DNA of 42,116 bases from Escherichia phage sortsyn. Below are positions 2,130 to 42,116 of this stretch, piece after piece (position 1 is the first letter of the stretch; each line of letters starts with the position of its first letter). The translations under genes and the position numbers were made by a program. A model generated the notes under the pieces. It did no database searches. It had not been told where the DNA came from and worked only from the letters and a program-made list of their open reading frames with translations. The DNA lies in the sequence record MN850623.1; one strand, written 5' to 3'.

Positions 2130-2152
2130 GGGGGCGATAAGCCCCCTTTCTC
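2130..2152 (+). terminator. Terminator-like hairpin between ejection gene and tailspike
   Basis: Stem GGGGGC/GCCCCC then TTTCTC; abuts the tailspike ATG. Confidence 0.4.
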
Positions 2153-4405
2153 ATGGAGAACACAATGGCCCGCGACGTATACGCTGATATTGGTATGCCT
2201 TCGACGCCTTTCCTACGTCTGGACCGCTTCGCGGCGCTGGTCAACGGGAAGATCTATGTAGGCGTGAAAGATACCGACCCGCTGAACCCAGCGAACCAGA
2301 CCCAGGTCTTTGTCGAGGACGAGGACGGAACGCTGACGCCAATCCCGCAGCCAGTACGGACCAACGTCTCCGGCTATCCGGTCTGGAACGGTCAAGTAGT
2401 CAAACTGATCACCAAGATCGAATCATCCATGAAGGTGATGGACGCGAACGACGTCCAGCAATTCTATTTCGGGAACCTGTTCAAATATGATCCGGTCCAG
2501 ATGTGGAACCTTCTCACCTCGCCGACTGGCTGGGAGTACGTGGGGACGAATTACGGCGTTTTGAAAGAGTCGATTCAGGGCTGGATCACTCCTTTTCAGT
2601 TCGTCGGGAAAGCGCCATTCACCAGCGTGTCCGCAGCCATCCAAACCATGTTTGACACGGCTCAGGCCCAAAAGCTGGCAGTCTGGGCCATTGGCTGGGA
2701 GGGAACGCTGGACGGCAACGTGACCGCGACGGATATCCTCATCATGGGGGGAACGTGGAAAGGTACGCCGGACTTTTTCATGGACAATTCCACGCTGAAA
2801 GGCGCGACCATCAAAAACGCCCGTATTCGCGTATGGGGCGGCGACGTAAGGATCCGCGATTGCCTGTTTGACGGCAAGCCGACCACGAGCAAGGTCGCAA
2901 GCGTAATGATGCAAGCCCTACCGAAAAACGCGACTGTGGAAGTCACGGAGAGCGAGTTCCGCAATGGCCTTTACGGCATCTTGCAGCAGGGGACCGGGGA
3001 ACTCGTCACGCGTGGCCTGTATCGTAACTTGTCGTTTTACGACATGGGCGGCGACGGGATCGAGCTTAACGTGGTCCAGCGCCACTACGACGACGGATGC
3101 GTGATCGAAAATATCTACCTGGAGAACATCGACTCCACCGGACAGGCTCCGATCAACCCGTCCAACTGGGGGATCGGGATCGGCGTCGCTGGTCAATCTC
3201 CGTATGGTATCGACACGCCGGACGAGAACTTCGCGAAGAACATCACGATCCGCAACGTGACGGGCGTCGGCGTCCGCCAGCTTGTTCACTTCGAAATGGT
3301 CCGCGACTCCGTGATCGAGAACATCAACGGCGACCCGGATCAGAACGTGTCTAACGGCTCCGGCCTGACGCTGGCGACGGTCCTCTGTTATGGCTCGCGC
3401 CGCGTGTCGATCGATGGAGTTCGCGGGGAGCCGATCGTCCAGTCCGGGACCCTGGCCTCCGACGTCCGCGTGGTTATGCTGGAGTGGGGGACTAACGCCG
3501 GAGTGGGCGCTCGTGGTCCTTGCCAGGACATGACCGTGAGGAACGTCTATTCCAAGACCGGGCGCTTTTACGCTGGCGTGGGTACGGAAAAGGCCGGGGC
3601 AACCAACCGTTGCCGATTCAGTAACATCAACGTGGCTAAATTCTCCGTTTTCGGCGTGGCTACCGAACTGGATTTAAACGATATCTCCGGCGATATCTTC
3701 GACGCGATCGGGGATGATTCCAGCGGCGGGACGCCTTCGAATGGTTATATCGCTGGCGGTCGCACCGTGTTACGCATGAATAATGTGAACTTCGGCGCGT
3801 ACCCGGATCAGGGCTGGAGCCGTTGCGCATACAGCCAGATTGATTGCGTTAATTCGAACGTGTTCGCCCGTCCGTACCCTCGTTCGGGGACTAACGGCGG
3901 CGTAGGCGCTGAAATGCAGCCCTCTAACCACACTTACCTGATCCCTACTCCTGACCAGATGGACGGCGTAGGGATCTGGGATGGTAACGCGTTCCCGACC
4001 GGGCGCGAGTTCATGGAGGGCGATCTCCTGGTCCGCAACGATGGCAAGATCTTTGCCGTCGAGACGTCCGGCGCATACCTCCCGGCGGTCGCAGAATTGC
4101 AGATTAAAGCGACGGCAGCGGGCCAGACCTACCTCGCGCAAAATTACGCGATGGCTGGCAACAAGTCGGATCAGGTCTGGTTTTATAAGACCCCACTGAC
4201 GCAGGGGACCCGCATCACGATCCCCGGAGCCGGGGCTGGCGGCGCGGCGCTTAACACGGTGATCACTCGCGCACCGTACAGCACCAACCCAAGCAACCCG
4301 ACCGCAGAGATCAGGATCGACATTGCGGACGCTATCGTGACTGGAACCGTGGCGGGCGTTCAACTGGCGGCAACGAAGCCGATCTCCTTCCGAACTCCGG
4401 TATAA
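2153..4405 (+). CDS. Tailspike protein: P22-type head-binding N-terminal domain plus parallel beta-helix receptor-binding/depolymerase domain
   Basis: N-terminus (VNGKIYVGVKDTDPLNPANQTQVFVEDEDG...YPVWNGQVVKLIT) matches the P22 gp9 head-binding domain pattern as recalled; central region has beta-helix-like repeats (NITIRNVTGVGV, VIENINGDP, MTVRNVYSKTG). Confidence 0.9.
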   Translation: MENTMARDVYADIGMPSTPFLRLDRFAALVNGKIYVGVKDTDPLNPANQTQVFVEDEDGTLTPIPQPVRTNVSGYPVWNGQVVKLITKIESSMKVMDANDVQQFYFGNLFKYDPVQMWNLLTSPTGWEYVGTNYGVLKESIQGWITPFQFVGKAPFTSVSAAIQTMFDTAQAQKLAVWAIGWEGTLDGNVTATDILIMGGTWKGTPDFFMDNSTLKGATIKNARIRVWGGDVRIRDCLFDGKPTTSKVASVMMQALPKNATVEVTESEFRNGLYGILQQGTGELVTRGLYRNLSFYDMGGDGIELNVVQRHYDDGCVIENIYLENIDSTGQAPINPSNWGIGIGVAGQSPYGIDTPDENFAKNITIRNVTGVGVRQLVHFEMVRDSVIENINGDPDQNVSNGSGLTLATVLCYGSRRVSIDGVRGEPIVQSGTLASDVRVVMLEWGTNAGVGARGPCQDMTVRNVYSKTGRFYAGVGTEKAGATNRCRFSNINVAKFSVFGVATELDLNDISGDIFDAIGDDSSGGTPSNGYIAGGRTVLRMNNVNFGAYPDQGWSRCAYSQIDCVNSNVFARPYPRSGTNGGVGAEMQPSNHTYLIPTPDQMDGVGIWDGNAFPTGREFMEGDLLVRNDGKIFAVETSGAYLPAVAELQIKATAAGQTYLAQNYAMAGNKSDQVWFYKTPLTQGTRITIPGAGAGGAALNTVITRAPYSTNPSNPTAEIRIDIADAIVTGTVAGVQLAATKPISFRTPV

Positions 4406-4440
4406 AAAAAAGGGGCCTTAATTGGCCCCTTCTTCTTCTC
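4406..4440. terminator. Bidirectional rho-independent terminator between tailspike (+) and DUF2829 gene (-)
   Basis: A8 run, stem AGGGGCC/GGCCCCT, T-rich tail. Confidence 0.7.
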
Positions 4441-6049: not shown

Positions 6050-6769
6050 TTAGAAGTCCTCAATATTCGGTTTATCTTCCGCCGCTGGCGCTTCCTGCTG
6101 TGGCTCTACCGGGGCGGCGGGCTGTTCTTGTGCCGGGGCATTATCGGCGGCTTTTTTCTTCTGGACAACCGAGGCCGGATTAAATCCTTTCGACTCGCTG
6201 GCGCGGAGAGCCGCCTTGCGGGTAATGTGCCAGTCACGGACAACCTTCACGGAGGCTTGATCGTCTGCCAGGGCGTGGACAACTTTCCCCACGGCTTCGT
6301 CCAGCTTTTGCACGTCCTCGATCCCTTCCAGATCTGCGATCCACTGGCGGGCGGTTTTCTTCGTCGCGTTCCCGTCGTCGTCTGCCTGGGTGATGCCGAA
6401 CAGCGCCGCCAGGTGATAGCGTCGGGCATAGGTGATCGCCGAGCCGACAGAGTGAGCCGCCGCGCCCTTACCGAACGAGAGAGGCATTTCCATAATCGCC
6501 GTCATGTACTCGCCGGACTCGTGGAGGACCATCGTCTCCAGCGGTAACACGAGCATGTTATTTTTTTCGGTGCAGGGCATAGGCGTCTGAACGACGATCA
6601 GACCGTTCGACTCAAGCGCCGGGCGAATGGTGGCGATGAAGGATCCCAAGTCCGCATACCAGTTATGCAGGTGATTATTTTCCGTGTTCTTTTTGGCTTC
6701 CGACATCATAGCGATACGGGCCTTTACCATTGCCGGGACGATCGCGGCGCGTGATTCTGAAAATTCCAT
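6050..6769 (-). CDS. erf: ERF-family single-strand annealing recombinase
   Basis: Motif [18 protein letters not shown] matches the Erf core (P22 Erf: TSSYARKYCLNGLFGI as recalled). Confidence 0.8.
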
Positions 6770-6771
6770 AA

Positions 6772-7812
6772 TTACACCTCTTTAAAATATTCTTTGTAAC
6801 GTTGTTGTAAGTAAATCGGAGTGGACAGCGCGATCTCCTCTTGCCCGTTCGCATAGGCGGGCCACACATCACGCTCGCGGCAGTGTTTGAGGACCTGGAG
6901 CGCCGTCTTGTACTGACCGCGACCGACGAGCAACTGTTCCGGCGTTAAGCGATTCATGAGGGCCAGCCACGGCTCGTCTTTTTCCTGTACGAGTAACTTC
7001 GTACCGTTCGGATCCTGCTGGTAGGCCAGCTTGAAACAATCATGTTGTAAAGCCATTTTGCACCAGTAGCCGAGATCGTGGGCCAGTCGCCCGAACTTCT
7101 CCGGCTCCGCGCTTTGCGTCGTCTTAAAGTCGATAATCTCCCCGACGTCCGTCACGCGGTCGAGCCGGACCTTAACGGGAACGCCGTCGATAATACAGAA
7201 CAGCGACAACTCCGGGACCCCCGTCTCAATGATCCGGCGGTAATTGTGGTTAGCCAGCAGAACGTCGCGCATTGAGTGAACGCGGTCCCAGTCCTTCGCC
7301 GGGACGATCTCGCGACCGTTCGCCTCTTTGATGGCGTTCGCCTCGATCTCGTGCCAGATGTGGAGCACTTCGTCCGGGGCCTGGACAGCGCGACACATCG
7401 CGATCAGTTCTTCGGCGGTTTTGTTGGAGTAGCCCTTCTGACCGCGATCCTTTAACCAGCTTTGCATTTTCGCTACAGAGGTGATCAGGTCCGGGAAGTC
7501 GTCCGGGTTAGGCAGACGGAAGAACTCACGAGCGAAGCGATCCGGCTCAAGTAACATCGTGTGGGAAGTGGTCCCGAACGTGAGCGGCTTCTGGGCGGAA
7601 TTGAGTTTTTTTGTTGCGGCTTCCTGTGCCTTCTGGAAACGCCAGGCGGCGGGGCATTTGCTGTAAATGGTCCAGAGGCTCGACCCGGTAATGTAGATCT
7701 CGTCCTCGTGGTATTGCTCATTGGTTAACTGGTCGGCGCTCCGGGCATCGACAAACATCGAAGCGGCTACGTCGTAGGCCGGGAGCGCTGGGATCAATCC
7801 GTTCGTTTGCAT
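6772..7812 (-). CDS. PD-(D/E)XK family exonuclease (RecE/exonuclease VIII-like, DUF3799-type)
   Basis: Nuclease core VRLDRVTDVGEIIDFKT with downstream Y..K; 4-nt ATGA overlap with erf start suggests translational coupling. Confidence 0.6.
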   Translation of the reverse strand: MQTNGLIPALPAYDVAASMFVDARSADQLTNEQYHEDEIYITGSSLWTIYSKCPAAWRFQKAQEAATKKLNSAQKPLTFGTTSHTMLLEPDRFAREFFRLPNPDDFPDLITSVAKMQSWLKDRGQKGYSNKTAEELIAMCRAVQAPDEVLHIWHEIEANAIKEANGREIVPAKDWDRVHSMRDVLLANHNYRRIIETGVPELSLFCIIDGVPVKVRLDRVTDVGEIIDFKTTQSAEPEKFGRLAHDLGYWCKMALQHDCFKLAYQQDPNGTKLLVQEKDEPWLALMNRLTPEQLLVGRGQYKTALQVLKHCRERDVWPAYANGQEEIALSTPIYLQQRYKEYFKEV

Positions 7813-7851
7813 TGTTGGGACCTCTCACTGGTGAATGTGAGAGGCATTAAA

Positions 7852-8319
7852 TCATTCTTTCGTGATGTTTGCAACGGGTAATTTAAGATAATATTCGAGA
7901 GCAGCCAGGCCAGCCTCGCAGCCCCACGCGACGGCAGTCCAGCCACCACGCGCCCGCGCCCGTTCGAGGATCTCCTTTTGCTCCGGCTTGAGCCGTGATT
8001 TGCTCCGGCTGTTCCGCTTCAACTCGATCAGCGCGAAGCCATAGCCCCCGCGAGGCTCAAGGATCACCCAGTCCGAGATCCCAGCCAGTCGTCCGAGCGC
8101 GTTCAACTTCGCCCCGTAGCGGGGATCGCTGGAGCCGCCGCTCTCGTTTACTGGGTGGAACGCCAGCAGCGCGTCGGGATCAGTGAGGGGATCGCCGTAG
8201 ATCTCCCGGATATTGCTCGCCATGTTTTGCTGTTCGACGTCCTCGTGTGGCGAGTAGGTCGGGATGTGGTCCAGATAGAACTCGCGCCAGAACTCAGTCT
8301 TTTTATTCAGTACGGACAT
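7852..8319 (-). CDS. VRR-NUC domain nuclease
   Basis: GISDWVILEPRGGYGFALIELKRNSRSKSRLKPEQKEIL fits the VRR-NUC D..E.K core pattern. Confidence 0.65.
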   Translation of the reverse strand: MSVLNKKTEFWREFYLDHIPTYSPHEDVEQQNMASNIREIYGDPLTDPDALLAFHPVNESGGSSDPRYGAKLNALGRLAGISDWVILEPRGGYGFALIELKRNSRSKSRLKPEQKEILERARARGGWTAVAWGCEAGLAALEYYLKLPVANITKE

Positions 8320-14712: not shown

Positions 14713-14773
14713 ACGCCAGAGATGATCTACAATGCCGGGGCAGTATACCGCACAATTTCACGAGGACAAAATT

Positions 14774-15538
14774 ATGGCTTTTTGGCATCGGCAATACCGC
14801 GCTGATCTTTTCGGATGGAAGGTATCGCGCATCCTTGATCCCTCCGCTCCTGGTGTACATCAAAAAGATGTTATCTGGCTGGCGTCTGAACCTGCAAACC
14901 TCGATCCTACTGGGATGTTTTATTTCCAGCCTGATCCGAAGTCAGACCAGCCTCTCCAGTTTTTGGTAAACCTTAGCGGCAACAACGGCAGCGACGTCAC
15001 GGGATCATACGTGCCTAACGGCTCCTTAAAATCATTCTCCGTACAAGTAGCCGGGGGCGTTCCTCCGTATACCTTCGCATGGTTCCGGCGTTCCGGCGGC
15101 GTGGACAACTCCGTGGGGACTAACTCCAGCACCTACTCGATCCCCGCCTACTCCTCCAGCAATAACGGGGATTATTTTTGTCGCGTGACCGATGCGCAGG
15201 GCGTCATGATCGAATCGCTACGCGAGCGCACCAAAGTATTGATCAGGCTGACGACTAACCTCCCGTTAACTGATGCGTGGGCCGTGGGCGTGTCTGACAG
15301 CCTTGCGATCGTTGTCTCTGATGGCCTTACCCCGTATACCTACCAATGGCAGAAGTCCACGGACGGCGGGGCAACCTGGAGCAACGTCGCTAACGGTGGG
15401 ACCGTCTCCGGGGCCACTACTGCAACGCTGACCAACTCCGCCCCCGCGCTGGGTGATGCCGGAATGTACCGCTGTATTATCACCGACTCAGCGGGCTATA
15501 AAGTCCAGTCCGTACAATGCGCCGTAACGGTGGCATAA
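14774..15538 (+). CDS. Moron-like protein with two immunoglobulin-like domains
   Basis: Two Ig-type repeats (PPYTFAWFRRSGG...GDYFCRVTDAQG and TPYTYQWQKSTDGG...GMYRCIITDSAG); GAGGA SD before ATG 14774 (ORF track start 14732); flanked by terminators; first 60 nt about 52 percent GC. Confidence 0.7.
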   Translation: MAFWHRQYRADLFGWKVSRILDPSAPGVHQKDVIWLASEPANLDPTGMFYFQPDPKSDQPLQFLVNLSGNNGSDVTGSYVPNGSLKSFSVQVAGGVPPYTFAWFRRSGGVDNSVGTNSSTYSIPAYSSSNNGDYFCRVTDAQGVMIESLRERTKVLIRLTTNLPLTDAWAVGVSDSLAIVVSDGLTPYTYQWQKSTDGGATWSNVANGGTVSGATTATLTNSAPALGDAGMYRCIITDSAGYKVQSVQCAVTVA

Positions 15539-36119: not shown

Positions 36120-36575
36120 ATGGCGACTTTGCAGAAGATCCAGATCGTTAACCTGGCGTTACGCCGTGGCGGGCTGGCGTCGTCTGCTGTTCTCATGATG
36201 CCAGATCCCCAGCAGTTAGCCGACGCGCTGGAGGATCTGGAGGGCTTAATGGCTACGGTGATTCAGGACGGCGTGGCCTTACCCTACATCTTCACGACCA
36301 ACGCCGACGGCGTACCGGACGGGAACGAGGACTCCGGGCTGGACCTGTGGACCAAAGAGGGGATCGCCCTCAAGCTGGCCCAGCGGATCCTCCTGGATAT
36401 GCAGCGCGATTTAACGCCTGAAATGAACGCAGTTTTAAAGGAGCAATGGGACATTATTAAGATCCAGTTCTACACGGTCCCAAGCCTGAAACAGCGTAAC
36501 GATATGCCTACGGGGGCGGGTAATCGTCCGTTCTTCCCGGAGGACCGTTTCTACTATGACGGGAGCGACAAATGA
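36120..36575 (+). CDS. Head-to-tail adaptor / tail accessory factor (P22 gp4-like)
   Basis: LEDLEGLMATVIQDG and RNDMPTGAGNRPF parallel P22 gp4 DDLEAMMAEWYQDG and SRMPTGSGNSF as recalled. Confidence 0.85.
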   Translation: MATLQKIQIVNLALRRGGLASSAVLMMPDPQQLADALEDLEGLMATVIQDGVALPYIFTTNADGVPDGNEDSGLDLWTKEGIALKLAQRILLDMQRDLTPEMNAVLKEQWDIIKIQFYTVPSLKQRNDMPTGAGNRPFFPEDRFYYDGSDK

Positions 36576-36652
36576 AACCGACCAAAGGCAAAAAGAAGCC
36601 GCAGGGCAGCAAGAAGCCGAAGAAACCAGCTAAGGCTAAAGGGGGCTACTGA
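36572..36652 (+). CDS. Possible 26-aa lysine-rich micro-ORF (MKPTKGKKKPQGSKKPKKPAKAKGGY)
   Basis: Start overlaps the gp4-like stop (ATGA) and its stop overlaps the gp10-like start (TGATG). Confidence 0.3.
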   Translation: MKPTKGKKKPQGSKKPKKPAKAKGGY

Positions 36653-38091
36653 TGCGCAACCCAGAACGCGGGCAGGAGATCACGATCCCGCTGTTATATG
36701 GCGATGGTCGCCGATCGACGACGCTCGACTGGTCAACCCGGCTACCGGAGAACATGCTGGCGGTCGCCCGCACCATTAAGGGCGGTAACGGCTATATGCG
36801 CATGATGCCGGGGATCGTGAAGGACAAGGACGTGGCGGGCGTCTCTCGCGGCGCAGACTGGAACACGGTCAAAAATGCGACTTACCGCGTGATGGGTGAT
36901 CAGCTGTACCTCTCCGGGGAGTCCGTGGCGACCATCTCCGGCGTGGACCGTACTCCTATGGCACATAGCCGGAACCGCGTCGCCATCGTGTCCCAGAACT
37001 CCATGATCATGATCGGCTACGACGGGAGCCGGAACAGCTTCTCCAACTGGACCGGGGAAGATGATCCGACGTATGACTGGGGCGACATTAACGACGTGTG
37101 CCACCTCCGCCAGCGCTTTATCTTCTCCACGAAGAACTCGGACACCTTCTGGATCTCCGACCTGCTGGACGAGACGAAGCCAGACAAGACCGCCCCGGCG
37201 TACCGCGCCGAAACCATGCCGGACGGCATCGTGGCGATCAGGGCGTGGCGTGATTATGTCGTTTGTTTTGGGACCGCCTCGATCGAGTTCTTCGGCCTGA
37301 CCGGGGACGATCAGAACGTCTACGCCAGCCAGCCGTCCTACACCGTCGAAGCCGGGACGATCGGGCGTGAAAGTGTCTGCGAGTATATGGAGACTTTCGC
37401 CTTTCTTACGTCGCCATTCTCCGGCGATTTGACGATCGCCATGATGAACCCCGGCGGCGGTACGTGGAGCGAGATCGCCAGCGCGGAGATCAAGAAGATT
37501 CTGGCGGACTATGACGTGGCAGACCTCGCCGACGTCCGTCTGGAGTCGCTCAGTTTTGAGACTCACAAACTTCTGATCGTCCACTTGCCGGACAAAACGC
37601 TGGTTTACGATCACCCAGTAAGCCAGGCGCAGGGCGTCCCGGTCTGGTCGTACATTAAGACGGGCATCAACGGGATCGGACCTTACCGCGCCGTGGACTT
37701 CGTGAACGAGGGCCGCGTGATCACCTGTGGCGACAAGCTGGATCCGTATCTGGGGAAAATGGATAACACCACGTCGGCCCAGTATGGCGAGGACCAGGAG
37801 ATCGTCCTGTATACGCCGCTATTGTGGGCCGAGAATGCGATCCTTGCAGACTTCCGCATGGATGCCAGCACCGGGGGCGACTCCGTAGCGAGCCGGATCT
37901 GGCTCTCCGCGACCGAGGACGGGATCGTGTACGGGCAGGAGAAAAGCATCGCCTACAATACCCCGTATCAGTGGCTACAGAACGTTATCTTACGCGTAGT
38001 AGGCCGAGTCCGTTCCGCTATCGGCTTTAAAATCCGCACCGTAGGCGCAACCCCGGCGACTCTCTCGCGGGCGCGTGTCCGTGTGACCTAA
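36652..38091 (+). CDS. Tail hub protein (P22 gp10-like)
   Basis: GVSRG...NA.YRV, AWRDYVVCFGTASIEFFGLTG, ITCGDK, WLSATEDGIVYG, IGFKIR segments colinear with P22 gp10 as recalled. Confidence 0.9.
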   Translation: MRNPERGQEITIPLLYGDGRRSTTLDWSTRLPENMLAVARTIKGGNGYMRMMPGIVKDKDVAGVSRGADWNTVKNATYRVMGDQLYLSGESVATISGVDRTPMAHSRNRVAIVSQNSMIMIGYDGSRNSFSNWTGEDDPTYDWGDINDVCHLRQRFIFSTKNSDTFWISDLLDETKPDKTAPAYRAETMPDGIVAIRAWRDYVVCFGTASIEFFGLTGDDQNVYASQPSYTVEAGTIGRESVCEYMETFAFLTSPFSGDLTIAMMNPGGGTWSEIASAEIKKILADYDVADLADVRLESLSFETHKLLIVHLPDKTLVYDHPVSQAQGVPVWSYIKTGINGIGPYRAVDFVNEGRVITCGDKLDPYLGKMDNTTSAQYGEDQEIVLYTPLLWAENAILADFRMDASTGGDSVASRIWLSATEDGIVYGQEKSIAYNTPYQWLQNVILRVVGRVRSAIGFKIRTVGATPATLSRARVRVT

Positions 38092-38106: not shown

Positions 38107-38877
38107 ATGCCAGTTAAACAGAAGATTCAGCAGCTAAACACCAGCAGCCTACCGCCGGGAACGTCGATCGCTTTCCGGGACTGGCTGGTGAGGCTGAACG
38201 GAGTCACGAAGGAGACGGGGGACGTCGCAGACGGAGCGGAGTCCACCGCAGACGAGGCGAAGGAGATCGCCGAGGCCCAGCGCATCCGAAACGACCAGCA
38301 GGACGTGACGCTGGCCCTCCACGATCAGCGACTCGACAGCGCAGAGAACCGCCTCACGCTGTTAGAGGACGATGTGGACTACCTGCTGGACAAGGTGATC
38401 GATCTGGAGACGCGGATCGAGGATCTGGAGGACTGGCGCGTGTACATGACCCGCCAGAAATCCGAGGTCGTCTACAGCGGGATCTCGCTTAACATCCCCA
38501 CGACGCCCTCCAACCTCCTGACGCTCCTCGCCGCCCTCACCCCGACGTCCGGCAGTCTGGCCCCGTTCTTCAACACGGCGACCGGGCGACTCGTGGCGCT
38601 GAACAAGAACAAGGATCTTAAACTCAAGATCAGCGTGGTGGGGGCGTTCGCGGGCGGGACCACTAACAGGTCGATGGAGATCACTTTCGGGACCGTCGTC
38701 CCCGACACTCTCGTGGTGAGCCGCAACCCGGCAACCCCTACGGATAACTTATTGTTCAACACCTTTTTCTCCGTGGAGGAGGGGGACGACATTACCAGCC
38801 CAGGGATCAACATGACGATCCAGTCCAACGGCTCCGCGTTCACGGCAACCCAGATCAAACTAATCGCGACGCAGTAA
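38107..38877 (+). CDS. Tail needle protein (P22 gp26-like) with C-terminal knob domain
   Basis: N-terminal coiled coil EAQRIRNDQQDVTLALHDQRLDSAENR similar to gp26; longer C-terminal region. Confidence 0.8.
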   Translation: MPVKQKIQQLNTSSLPPGTSIAFRDWLVRLNGVTKETGDVADGAESTADEAKEIAEAQRIRNDQQDVTLALHDQRLDSAENRLTLLEDDVDYLLDKVIDLETRIEDLEDWRVYMTRQKSEVVYSGISLNIPTTPSNLLTLLAALTPTSGSLAPFFNTATGRLVALNKNKDLKLKISVVGAFAGGTTNRSMEITFGTVVPDTLVVSRNPATPTDNLLFNTFFSVEEGDDITSPGINMTIQSNGSAFTATQIKLIATQ

Positions 38878-41259: not shown

Positions 41260-42116
41260 ATGGCGAACATCTTCGACCAGTTTGATCAGAATATGCCGGA
41301 AAGTGCGGAAGCGCTCCCAAATCAGATCCCGCAGCAAGCGGGATCCACTGGCGGAGGTTATGCTGATCTGGTGGAGAGCGCCGGGGCCAAGTGGGGGATC
41401 CCTGCTGGCCTCATGACTCAGTTAATGGGTAAAGAATCCAGCGGCGATCCCACTGCGACCTCCAGCAAGGGCGCAATGGGGCTTACTCAGGTGATGCCGG
41501 GAACGGCCCGCGATATGGGCTACGACCCGGCGCAACTGGCGCAGGATCCGGCAATGCAAGCGGACGCGGGGGCGCAGTATCTTTCCCGCATGTATCAGCG
41601 CTACGGAGATTGGGGGACGGCTCTCCAGGCTTACCACGACGGCCCCGGCAACGTAGACAAACAACTGGCGGGCCAGGCAACCCCAGGCCCGGAGGGGCGT
41701 CAATATGTGGATGATCGGTTTAATCAATGGACTGGGCGAGGCGCTGGCAGCGATGGCAGCGGCGAACCTACTCAATACGCAACCAGCGCACGATCTCCGA
41801 GCGCTGGCGGTAATGTTTTCGACCAGTTCGGAGACTACCAGGCACCAGCAGCCGCAGACGGAGCCGGAGCACCCGGAGCCGATCAACAAGTCCCAGCCGT
41901 CGCCGCTGGCAATGCACTTAATCAAACGGGATCTGATGGCGCACAAGGGGCGGCAGCGCCGAACGGTAACGGAGAGCAGGGCGGAGCTAATCAGCCCGGA
42001 CAAACCGATCCAAACGAAGAAGCCGCCCGAAACTGGGAAAAGTTAGGCCAGACCGTCCTCCACTCGCTGGATCAGGGCGCTCGCGGCGTGGCTCAGACGG
42101 GGATCGACCTGCTGAA
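41260..42116 (+). CDS. Ejection protein with N-terminal soluble lytic transglycosylase (SLT) domain; 3'-partial, no stop before window end
   Basis: GKESSGDPTATSSKGAMGLTQVMPGTA and ALQAYHDGPGNV match SLT catalytic Glu and AYNxG-like motifs; frame open to the last base and in phase with the ORF at the window start. Confidence 0.7.
   Translation, partial: MANIFDQFDQNMPESAEALPNQIPQQAGSTGGGYADLVESAGAKWGIPAGLMTQLMGKESSGDPTATSSKGAMGLTQVMPGTARDMGYDPAQLAQDPAMQADAGAQYLSRMYQRYGDWGTALQAYHDGPGNVDKQLAGQATPGPEGRQYVDDRFNQWTGRGAGSDGSGEPTQYATSARSPSAGGNVFDQFGDYQAPAAADGAGAPGADQQVPAVAAGNALNQTGSDGAQGAAAPNGNGEQGGANQPGQTDPNEEAARNWEKLGQTVLHSLDQGARGVAQTGIDLL

Follow-up and report, generated by a model that had tools for sequence, protein, structure and literature searches.

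A P22-type head-binding domain fused to a probable colanidase body in the tailspike of Escherichia phage sortsyn

We asked what kind of tailspike is encoded at positions 2153..4405 (+ strand) of the 42,116-nucleotide stretch of phage sortsyn DNA analyzed here (MN850623.1; hereafter the window), how far its N-terminal part resembles the P22 tailspike gp9, and what the remainder of the protein is likely to do. The open reading frame (ORF) list gives a 750-aa ORF at this locus, which is intact and without interruptions. The true start is probably the ATG at 2165, which would yield a product of 746 aa, because a GGAG (Shine-Dalgarno) sequence lies at 2155-2158, 6 nt 5' of this codon, a protein of the same sequence in the database (P0001) has 746 residues, and the RefSeq annotation of IME_EC2 gp25 starts at the second ATG. 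The ATG at 2153 has no Shine-Dalgarno sequence and directly abuts a hairpin. Residue numbers throughout follow the 750-aa ORF, that is, the homologue alignment numbering +4.

A large DNA-transfer/transglycosylase gene precedes the spike gene and ends with a stop codon at 2123-2125, and a GC hairpin (GGGGGC-gataa-GCCCCC, then TTTCTC; 2130..2146, + strand) lies between this stop codon and the spike start. A terminator-like hairpin at 4410..4431, with an A-run and a T-rich run at its sides, stands between the spike gene and the convergent gene downstream. The DNA-transfer/transglycosylase gene upstream of the spike wraps around the window ends.

The N-terminal domain was confirmed to be a P22-type tailspike head-binding (tail-hub-binding) domain (aa 13-115; 2189..2497, + strand). 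The Pfam Head_binding profile (PF09008) matched aa 13-115 over profile positions 10-112/113 with an E-value of 5.4e-34 and a score of 117.3 bits (cut-off 24). By BLASTP, aa 13-113 of P22 gp9 aligned with spike aa 16-116 at 49% identity (E=8e-26), and Sf6 gp14 was nearer than P22 gp9 in this domain (55% identity). The likeness to P22 and Sf6 in the alignment stops exactly past a K-Y-D-P-x-Q motif, at Q116, beyond which BLASTP gave no significant segment of gp9 similarity (best later E=0.069). In a fold comparison based on a predicted AF2 model, the head-binding domain superimposed on the P22 crystal structure 1lkt_A with a TMt of 0.78 and an rmsd of 1.2 A over 84 columns, and 7sg7, 8tvr and 8eb7 matched the model with TMt values of 0.68-0.76. 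The initial annotation had stated that the first ~110 residues track P22 gp9 closely; the homology stands for aa 16-116, but "closely" amounts to about 49% identity rather than near-identity.

The same annotation had described the rest of the protein as a different beta-helix domain, and the sequence and model comparisons bore this out, with gp9 similarity ending at Q116. In a PDB sequence search, aa 118-748 matched phi92 gp150 (6e0v, E=7e-68), and BLASTP aligned gp150 residues 206-800 with spike aa 119-748 at 32% identity (E=6e-71), thereby reaching residue 800 of the 804 in gp150. Foldseek placed 6e0v_A, "colanidase tailspike protein gp150", at rank 1 for the AF2 model (E=8.9e-36, TMt 0.83, 650 columns, 30% identity). 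The model, with a mean pLDDT of 88, predicts a right-handed beta-helix with a cap helix; model residues 108-134 have low pLDDT, a helix lies at 155-169, and DSSP places beta rungs at model residues 172-570. Along the gene (+ strand), phi92 gp150 homology and the model delimit a linker, "neck" and cap helix with which the colanidase module begins (aa 118-200; 2504..2752); these are followed by the right-handed beta-helix colanidase body defined by DSSP, Foldseek and NCBIfam (aa ~201-575, with a WcaM-like core at aa 216-434; 2753..3877) and by a C-terminal region that aligns with the gp150 C-terminus and has mixed beta structure in the model at pLDDT 73-98 (aa 576-750; 3878..4402).

The body was identified through PDB, PHROGs and NCBIfam together with the precomputed Pfam labels (PF27800) of its homologues. 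PHROG 6117, "colanic acid degradation", matched the spike with an E-value of 2.5e-246, J8-65 gp40 aligned with aa 126-746 at 44.6% identity (E=1e-168), and PF27800 "WcaM" is present in every one of the 54 database homologues that have a domain assignment. Taken together, these matches indicate that aa 118-750 are not P22-like and, by their end-to-end homology to phi92 gp150, most likely form a colanidase-type body. The earlier prediction of a depolymerase of separate specificity thus gains a colanidase family match, but the enzyme would act on colanic acid and not on an O-antigen or K capsule, the targets that the prediction had in mind.

Similarity to the bacterial protein WcaM was confined to the core of the body. 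E. coli K-12 WcaM aligned with spike aa 217-434 at 33% identity (E=2e-20), and the NCBIfam WcaM profile matched aa 216-423 only (E=1.3e-20). The score of the spike against the bacterial WcaM equivalog (NF007517 / TIGR04004) was 73.5 bits, below the cut-off of 808. By these scores the spike is a distant WcaM homologue rather than a WcaM equivalog, and phage spikes that GenBank lists under names like "colanic acid biosynthesis protein wcaM" are misnamed. Within the body, Q279, D301, E304, N306, Q376, H379 and E381 are invariant across the 54 homologues, phi92 gp150, J8-65 gp40 and E. coli WcaM. Most of these residues fall into a G-D301-x-I-E304-x-N306 motif (3053..3064, + strand), which holds a candidate catalytic acid pair, and an R-Q376-x-x-H379-x-E381 motif (3278..3295, + strand), a second candidate active-site element; based on this invariance, we infer that D301, E304 and E381 are candidate catalytic acids.

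The two parts of the spike have different distributions among phages. By tblastn, 254 phage records contain the body, and most of the matches listed are annotated as colanidase or colanic acid degradation. The head-binding domain was found in 179 records, few of which also belong to the first set. When fusions to the PF27800 body were counted among the 54 database homologues, five kinds of adaptor were found: Tail_spike_N (16 homologues), Head_binding (14), Phage_T7_tail (8), and Phage_tail_fib and phage_tail_N (1 each). Since it is fused to five adaptor kinds, the body moves among P22-architecture podoviruses, T7-like podoviruses, large myoviruses and jumbo phages. Judged by these domain assignments, module exchange of the body behind at least five N-terminal adaptor kinds is real. 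The initial annotation had gone further and read the fusion as the signature of host-range switching by domain exchange. The exchange is borne out by the range of adaptors, but a fresh switch is not: the combination of head-binding domain and colanidase occurs in IME_EC2, KMB41, ST231, Skarpretter, Sortsne/sortkaff, Lumpael and sortregn, and because every sequenced member of the phage group has it, it is an old, fixed and annotated design.

Comparison with the same-genus phages KMB41 and ST231 located a change of nearest relatives within the body. The genes flanking the spike are 82-98% identical to those of KMB41 and ST231 at the protein level, and the spike itself is 93% identical over aa 1-117, 88-90% over aa 118-200, 75-77% over aa 201-320 and 51-60% over aa 321-750. 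Two database proteins, P0002 and P0005, followed the reverse pattern, with 34-55% identity to the window spike over aa 118-200 and 73-82% over aa 201-440. P0002 has a Skarpretter-type head-binding domain that is 50% identical to that of the window spike and is found in a podovirus context, while P0005 has a T7-type adaptor and belongs to a T7-like genome, in which its gene is flanked by those for internal virion proteins and for the T7-type terminase. In Murrayvirus-type spikes, aa 118-200 (linker and cap helix), which are 87-90% identical to those of genus mates, are thus co-inherited with the head-binding domain.

A sliding comparison over 40-aa segments located the switch at aa ~230-330 (2840..3142, + strand). 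Murrayvirus-type proteins are 80-100% identical to the window spike ahead of this zone but 45-65% identical beyond it, where P0002, with the other head-binding type, and P0005, with its T7-type adaptor, rise to 75-92%. By these identities, the incongruence between the relatives of the N-terminal and C-terminal parts is beyond rate differences alone. The sliding identities suggest that the most recent crossover visible in relatives lies inside the conserved catalytic core, at aa ~230-330, and not at the head-binding junction at aa ~115. The zone is conserved in all members and contains the G-D-x-I-E-x-N motif, and it is plausible that this conserved stretch served as the substrate for homologous recombination. 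A megablast alignment against KMB41 and ST231 ended at nt ~960-984; we rejected this end as the border of a different domain, as the protein alignment shows the same family beyond it, only more diverged. The core-internal exchange is the one modestly new point of this analysis, and it bears on where junctions are placed in engineered chimeric spikes.

Over the distal body (aa ~240-640), the spike shares 75-92% identity with bodies carried on another head-binding lineage or on a T7-type adaptor, but only 45-65% with same-genus spikes. Should colanic acid be chemically uniform, as is usually assumed, fast exchange of the distal half implies that phages track some variable feature. Decoration with acetyl or pyruvyl groups could be such a feature, as could a second ligand of the distal or C-terminal part. 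It is conceivable, if rather doubtful, that the spike is a three-way mosaic whose latest junction lies in the core and whose distal exchange tracks such a variable feature, so that "colanidases" would comprise several specificities.

The remainder of the window encodes the partners that a spike of this architecture would need. A P22 gp4-type tail adaptor (36120..36575, + strand; PF11650 P22_Tail-4, E=8e-23; phrog_637) and a P22 gp10-type tail hub protein (36652..38091, + strand; PF11134, E=2.7e-132; phrog_578) are the docking partners of the head-binding domain, and a tail needle with an Sf6-type knob, the gp26 analogue, follows at 38107..38877 (+ strand; PF16532, E=7.5e-57). A P22-type portal and gp7/gp20-type ejection proteins are also encoded. 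When the other large ORFs were scanned against PHROGs, no second spike or receptor-binding protein gene was found in the window; these ORFs, considered as candidates and rejected, encode a Hoc-like Ig decoration protein, replication proteins and a methyltransferase.

The gene very probably encodes the only tailspike of a Murrayvirus podovirus of P22/Sf6 architecture, with a P22-type anchor and a colanidase body that cuts colanic acid. In P22 and Sf6, trimeric spikes dock via their N-terminal domains on the gp4/gp10 hub. By analogy with P22, the sortsyn spikes would be trimeric, and their N-terminal domains (aa ~5-117) would anchor them on the gp4/gp10-type hub encoded at 36120-38091. The body (aa 118-750), a predicted beta-helix glycoside hydrolase of the phi92 gp150 / J8-65 / WcaM family, would bind and cut colanic acid, and by cleaving the polymer the virion would clear itself a path through the slime layer. 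At the outer membrane, the needle with its Sf6-type knob may make contact, after which the gp7/gp20/gp16-type ejection proteins would take over and form a DNA conduit.

Colanic acid, or M-antigen, is the exopolysaccharide that makes up the slime layer in E. coli and related Enterobacteriaceae. E. coli K-12 has neither an O-antigen nor a K capsule, so colanic acid is the obvious polysaccharide target on this host. Phage sortsyn is a Murrayvirus, and its isolation host is E. coli K-12 MG1655 (PMC7552041). For phi92 gp150, hydrolysis of colanic acid at a beta-1,4 Glc-Fuc linkage has been reported (Xu et al. 2025, cited in PMC13450770). J8-65, whose spike is 87% identical to the characterized NST1 colanidase, forms expanding halos on mucoid K-12 (PMC4179555). 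Literature searches that paired P22-like spikes or Bonnellvirus with colanic acid, or tailspikes with WcaM, returned nothing. The "CAase" of PMC13217557 was set aside as evidence, as the source does not state the phage origin of the enzyme.

We considered whether a depolymerase of the same fold might act on something else, such as a K capsule, an O-antigen or a modified colanic acid, with the "colanidase" label having been over-transferred by homology. The spike is only 32-45% identical to the biochemically characterized enzymes, the module is also present in phages of Klebsiella, Cronobacter, Kosakonia and Enterobacter, and the distal body is hypervariable even inside the genus, where bodies diverge by up to ~45-50%, so that fine specificity could differ. 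In addition, KMB41 infects only 5% of tested UPEC strains (PMC11162368). However, the full length of the body aligns with two enzymes of reported colanic acid activity, and the candidate active-site motifs are invariant and extend to WcaM, a product of the colanic acid gene cluster. The host, moreover, is E. coli K-12 MG1655 in at least 30 records with the module, and K-12 lacks both O-antigen and K capsule. On balance, we consider a different substrate unlikely.

It is considerably less probable still that the spike binds its polysaccharide but is catalytically inactive, serving only as an adhesin or as a structural plug. Although activity has been assigned to the spike from its relatives, every residue that is invariant in the 54 homologues is kept, including the three acidic ones, the gene is 98.8% conserved with IME_EC2, and it encodes the sole spike of the genome. 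An ordinary P22 gp9-type endorhamnosidase throughout, with no modularity, can be given almost no weight: the N-terminal domain alone speaks for it, whereas BLASTP against gp9 found nothing significant past aa 116 and the PDB sequence search assigned aa 118-748 to 6e0v rather than to P22. Similarity to gp9 over the whole length was also what the initial annotation had named as evidence against its own reading, and no significant gp9 alignment extends past aa 116. A P22-type anchor with a body that cuts colanic acid thus remains the reading that we favor.

This architecture is already known and annotated in close relatives (IME_EC2, Skarpretter). The spike is accordingly a standard example of modular phage receptor-binding proteins, now with a named specificity, and its modular pattern could be recognized by a reader from the sequence alone. 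The practical appeal of colanidase spikes lies in their use as anti-biofilm enzymes and in support of phage cocktails directed at mucoid, phage-resistant E. coli (PMC4179555).

The closest known system is IME_EC2 gp25 (YP_009784224, "colanic acid degradation", Murrayvirus EC2), which is 98.8% identical in nucleotides and 99% in amino acids over the whole gene, has the same neighbors on both sides, and differs by a handful of substitutions near the C-terminus. The first 25 kb of the window are 96.6% identical to IME_EC2 at 70% coverage, and the isolation host of IME_EC2 is a clinical E. coli strain, not K-12. The Skarpretter "tailspike colanidase" (AZF88652) and the Sortsnevirus and Lumpael spikes have the same two-part architecture, with head-binding domains 52-77% and bodies 34-54% identical to those of the window spike. 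In the Skarpretter group, the spike gene occupies the same place as here, after the transglycosylase/DNA-transfer gene, and the Skarpretter GenBank record has a note naming both a Head_binding domain and a wcaM domain.

Among more distant systems, phi92 gp150 (PDB 6e0v/6e0w) is homologous from aa 118 to the C-terminus, is the best fold match and has the invariant motifs in common with the window spike, but a ~205-aa myovirus-type N-terminal adaptor replaces the P22 head-binding domain, and the baseplate that carries gp150 is multivalent, with several different spikes. J8-65 gp40 and the NST1 colanidase (Bonnellvirus, Autographiviridae) likewise have a homologous body, with a T7-type adaptor (PF03906) instead of the head-binding domain. 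P22 gp9 and Sf6 gp14 present the converse case: the hub-binding domain is common to them and the window spike, and their phages have the same portal, gp4, gp10, needle and ejection proteins, while no sequence similarity is detectable between the window body and theirs, which are O-antigen endorhamnosidases. E. coli WcaM (b2043) has the catalytic-core motifs in common with the spike, at 33% identity over ~220 aa. Pantoea stewartii WceF (PDB 6tgf), a weak match to the spike in the PDB sequence search, is a bacterial enzyme that hydrolyses exopolysaccharide and combines a P22-like head domain with a beta-helix (PMC7949094). In contrast with the phage spikes, both WcaM and WceF are bacterial proteins from EPS gene clusters and not parts of a virion.

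When the tailspike gene (2153-4405, + strand) was compared with loci L002, L003, L014 and L015, the nearest relatives were found to switch within the conserved catalytic core of the predicted colanidase body, at window positions 2840-3142 (spike residues ~230-330). On the 5' side of this zone, the gene is 80-100% like Murrayvirus spikes, while on the 3' side it shares 75-92% with spikes that carry either a different head-binding lineage or a T7-type adaptor. The spikes of the genus mates fall to 45-65% 3' of the switch zone, in contrast with the 82-98% identity observed in their flanking genes.

The start of the spike gene is ambiguous, with ATG 2153 and ATG 2165 both candidates. ATG 2165 has a GGAG 6 nt to its 5' side and is the start used both by RefSeq for the spike of the relative IME_EC2 and by an identical 746-aa database protein. 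ATG 2153 lacks a Shine-Dalgarno sequence and directly adjoins a GC hairpin (2130-2146, perfect 6-bp stem, short T-rich tail). The longer spike form is annotated in the GenBank records of KMB41 and ST231. This hairpin lies between the spike gene and its 5' neighbor, which encodes a DNA-transfer protein/transglycosylase, and all three should belong to a single late operon, in which the hairpin could serve to dampen spike expression or set its timing; alternatively, antitermination could carry transcription past it. The DNA-transfer gene, whose product has ~1007 aa in relatives, seems to run across both ends of the window (41260-42116 joined to 1-2125). This gives the window the look of an entire, circularly permuted genome that was opened within this gene.

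The tail needle (38107-38877) carries an Sf6-type knob rather than a P22-type tip. The Sf6 needle knob is tied to outer-membrane proteins that serve as secondary receptor, and its presence hints at a protein secondary receptor for sortsyn as well. Distant from the structural operon, at 14732-15538, lies a gene for a Hoc-like head decoration protein with an Ig domain (phrog_2973, E=5e-53), which might give the capsid some weak adhesion to glycans.

Among the colanidase matches listed were several ~150-kb "Campylobacter phage" records (MG065650, MG065645 and others), whose colanidase genes are near-identical to those of E. coli Phapecoctavirus and Justusliebigvirus phages; the host labels of these records look doubtful.

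Lastly, window positions 2798-3454 were compared with wcaM of the E. coli K-12 colanic acid cluster (6503-7897 of locus L010), whose product is annotated only as a "putative biosynthesis protein". All invariant polar and acidic residues of the phage colanidases are also present in host WcaM. These shared residues suggest that WcaM is itself a colanic acid glycanase, in analogy to WceF for stewartan. "Colanic acid biosynthesis protein wcaM", as applied to phage spikes in GenBank, is a wrong label.
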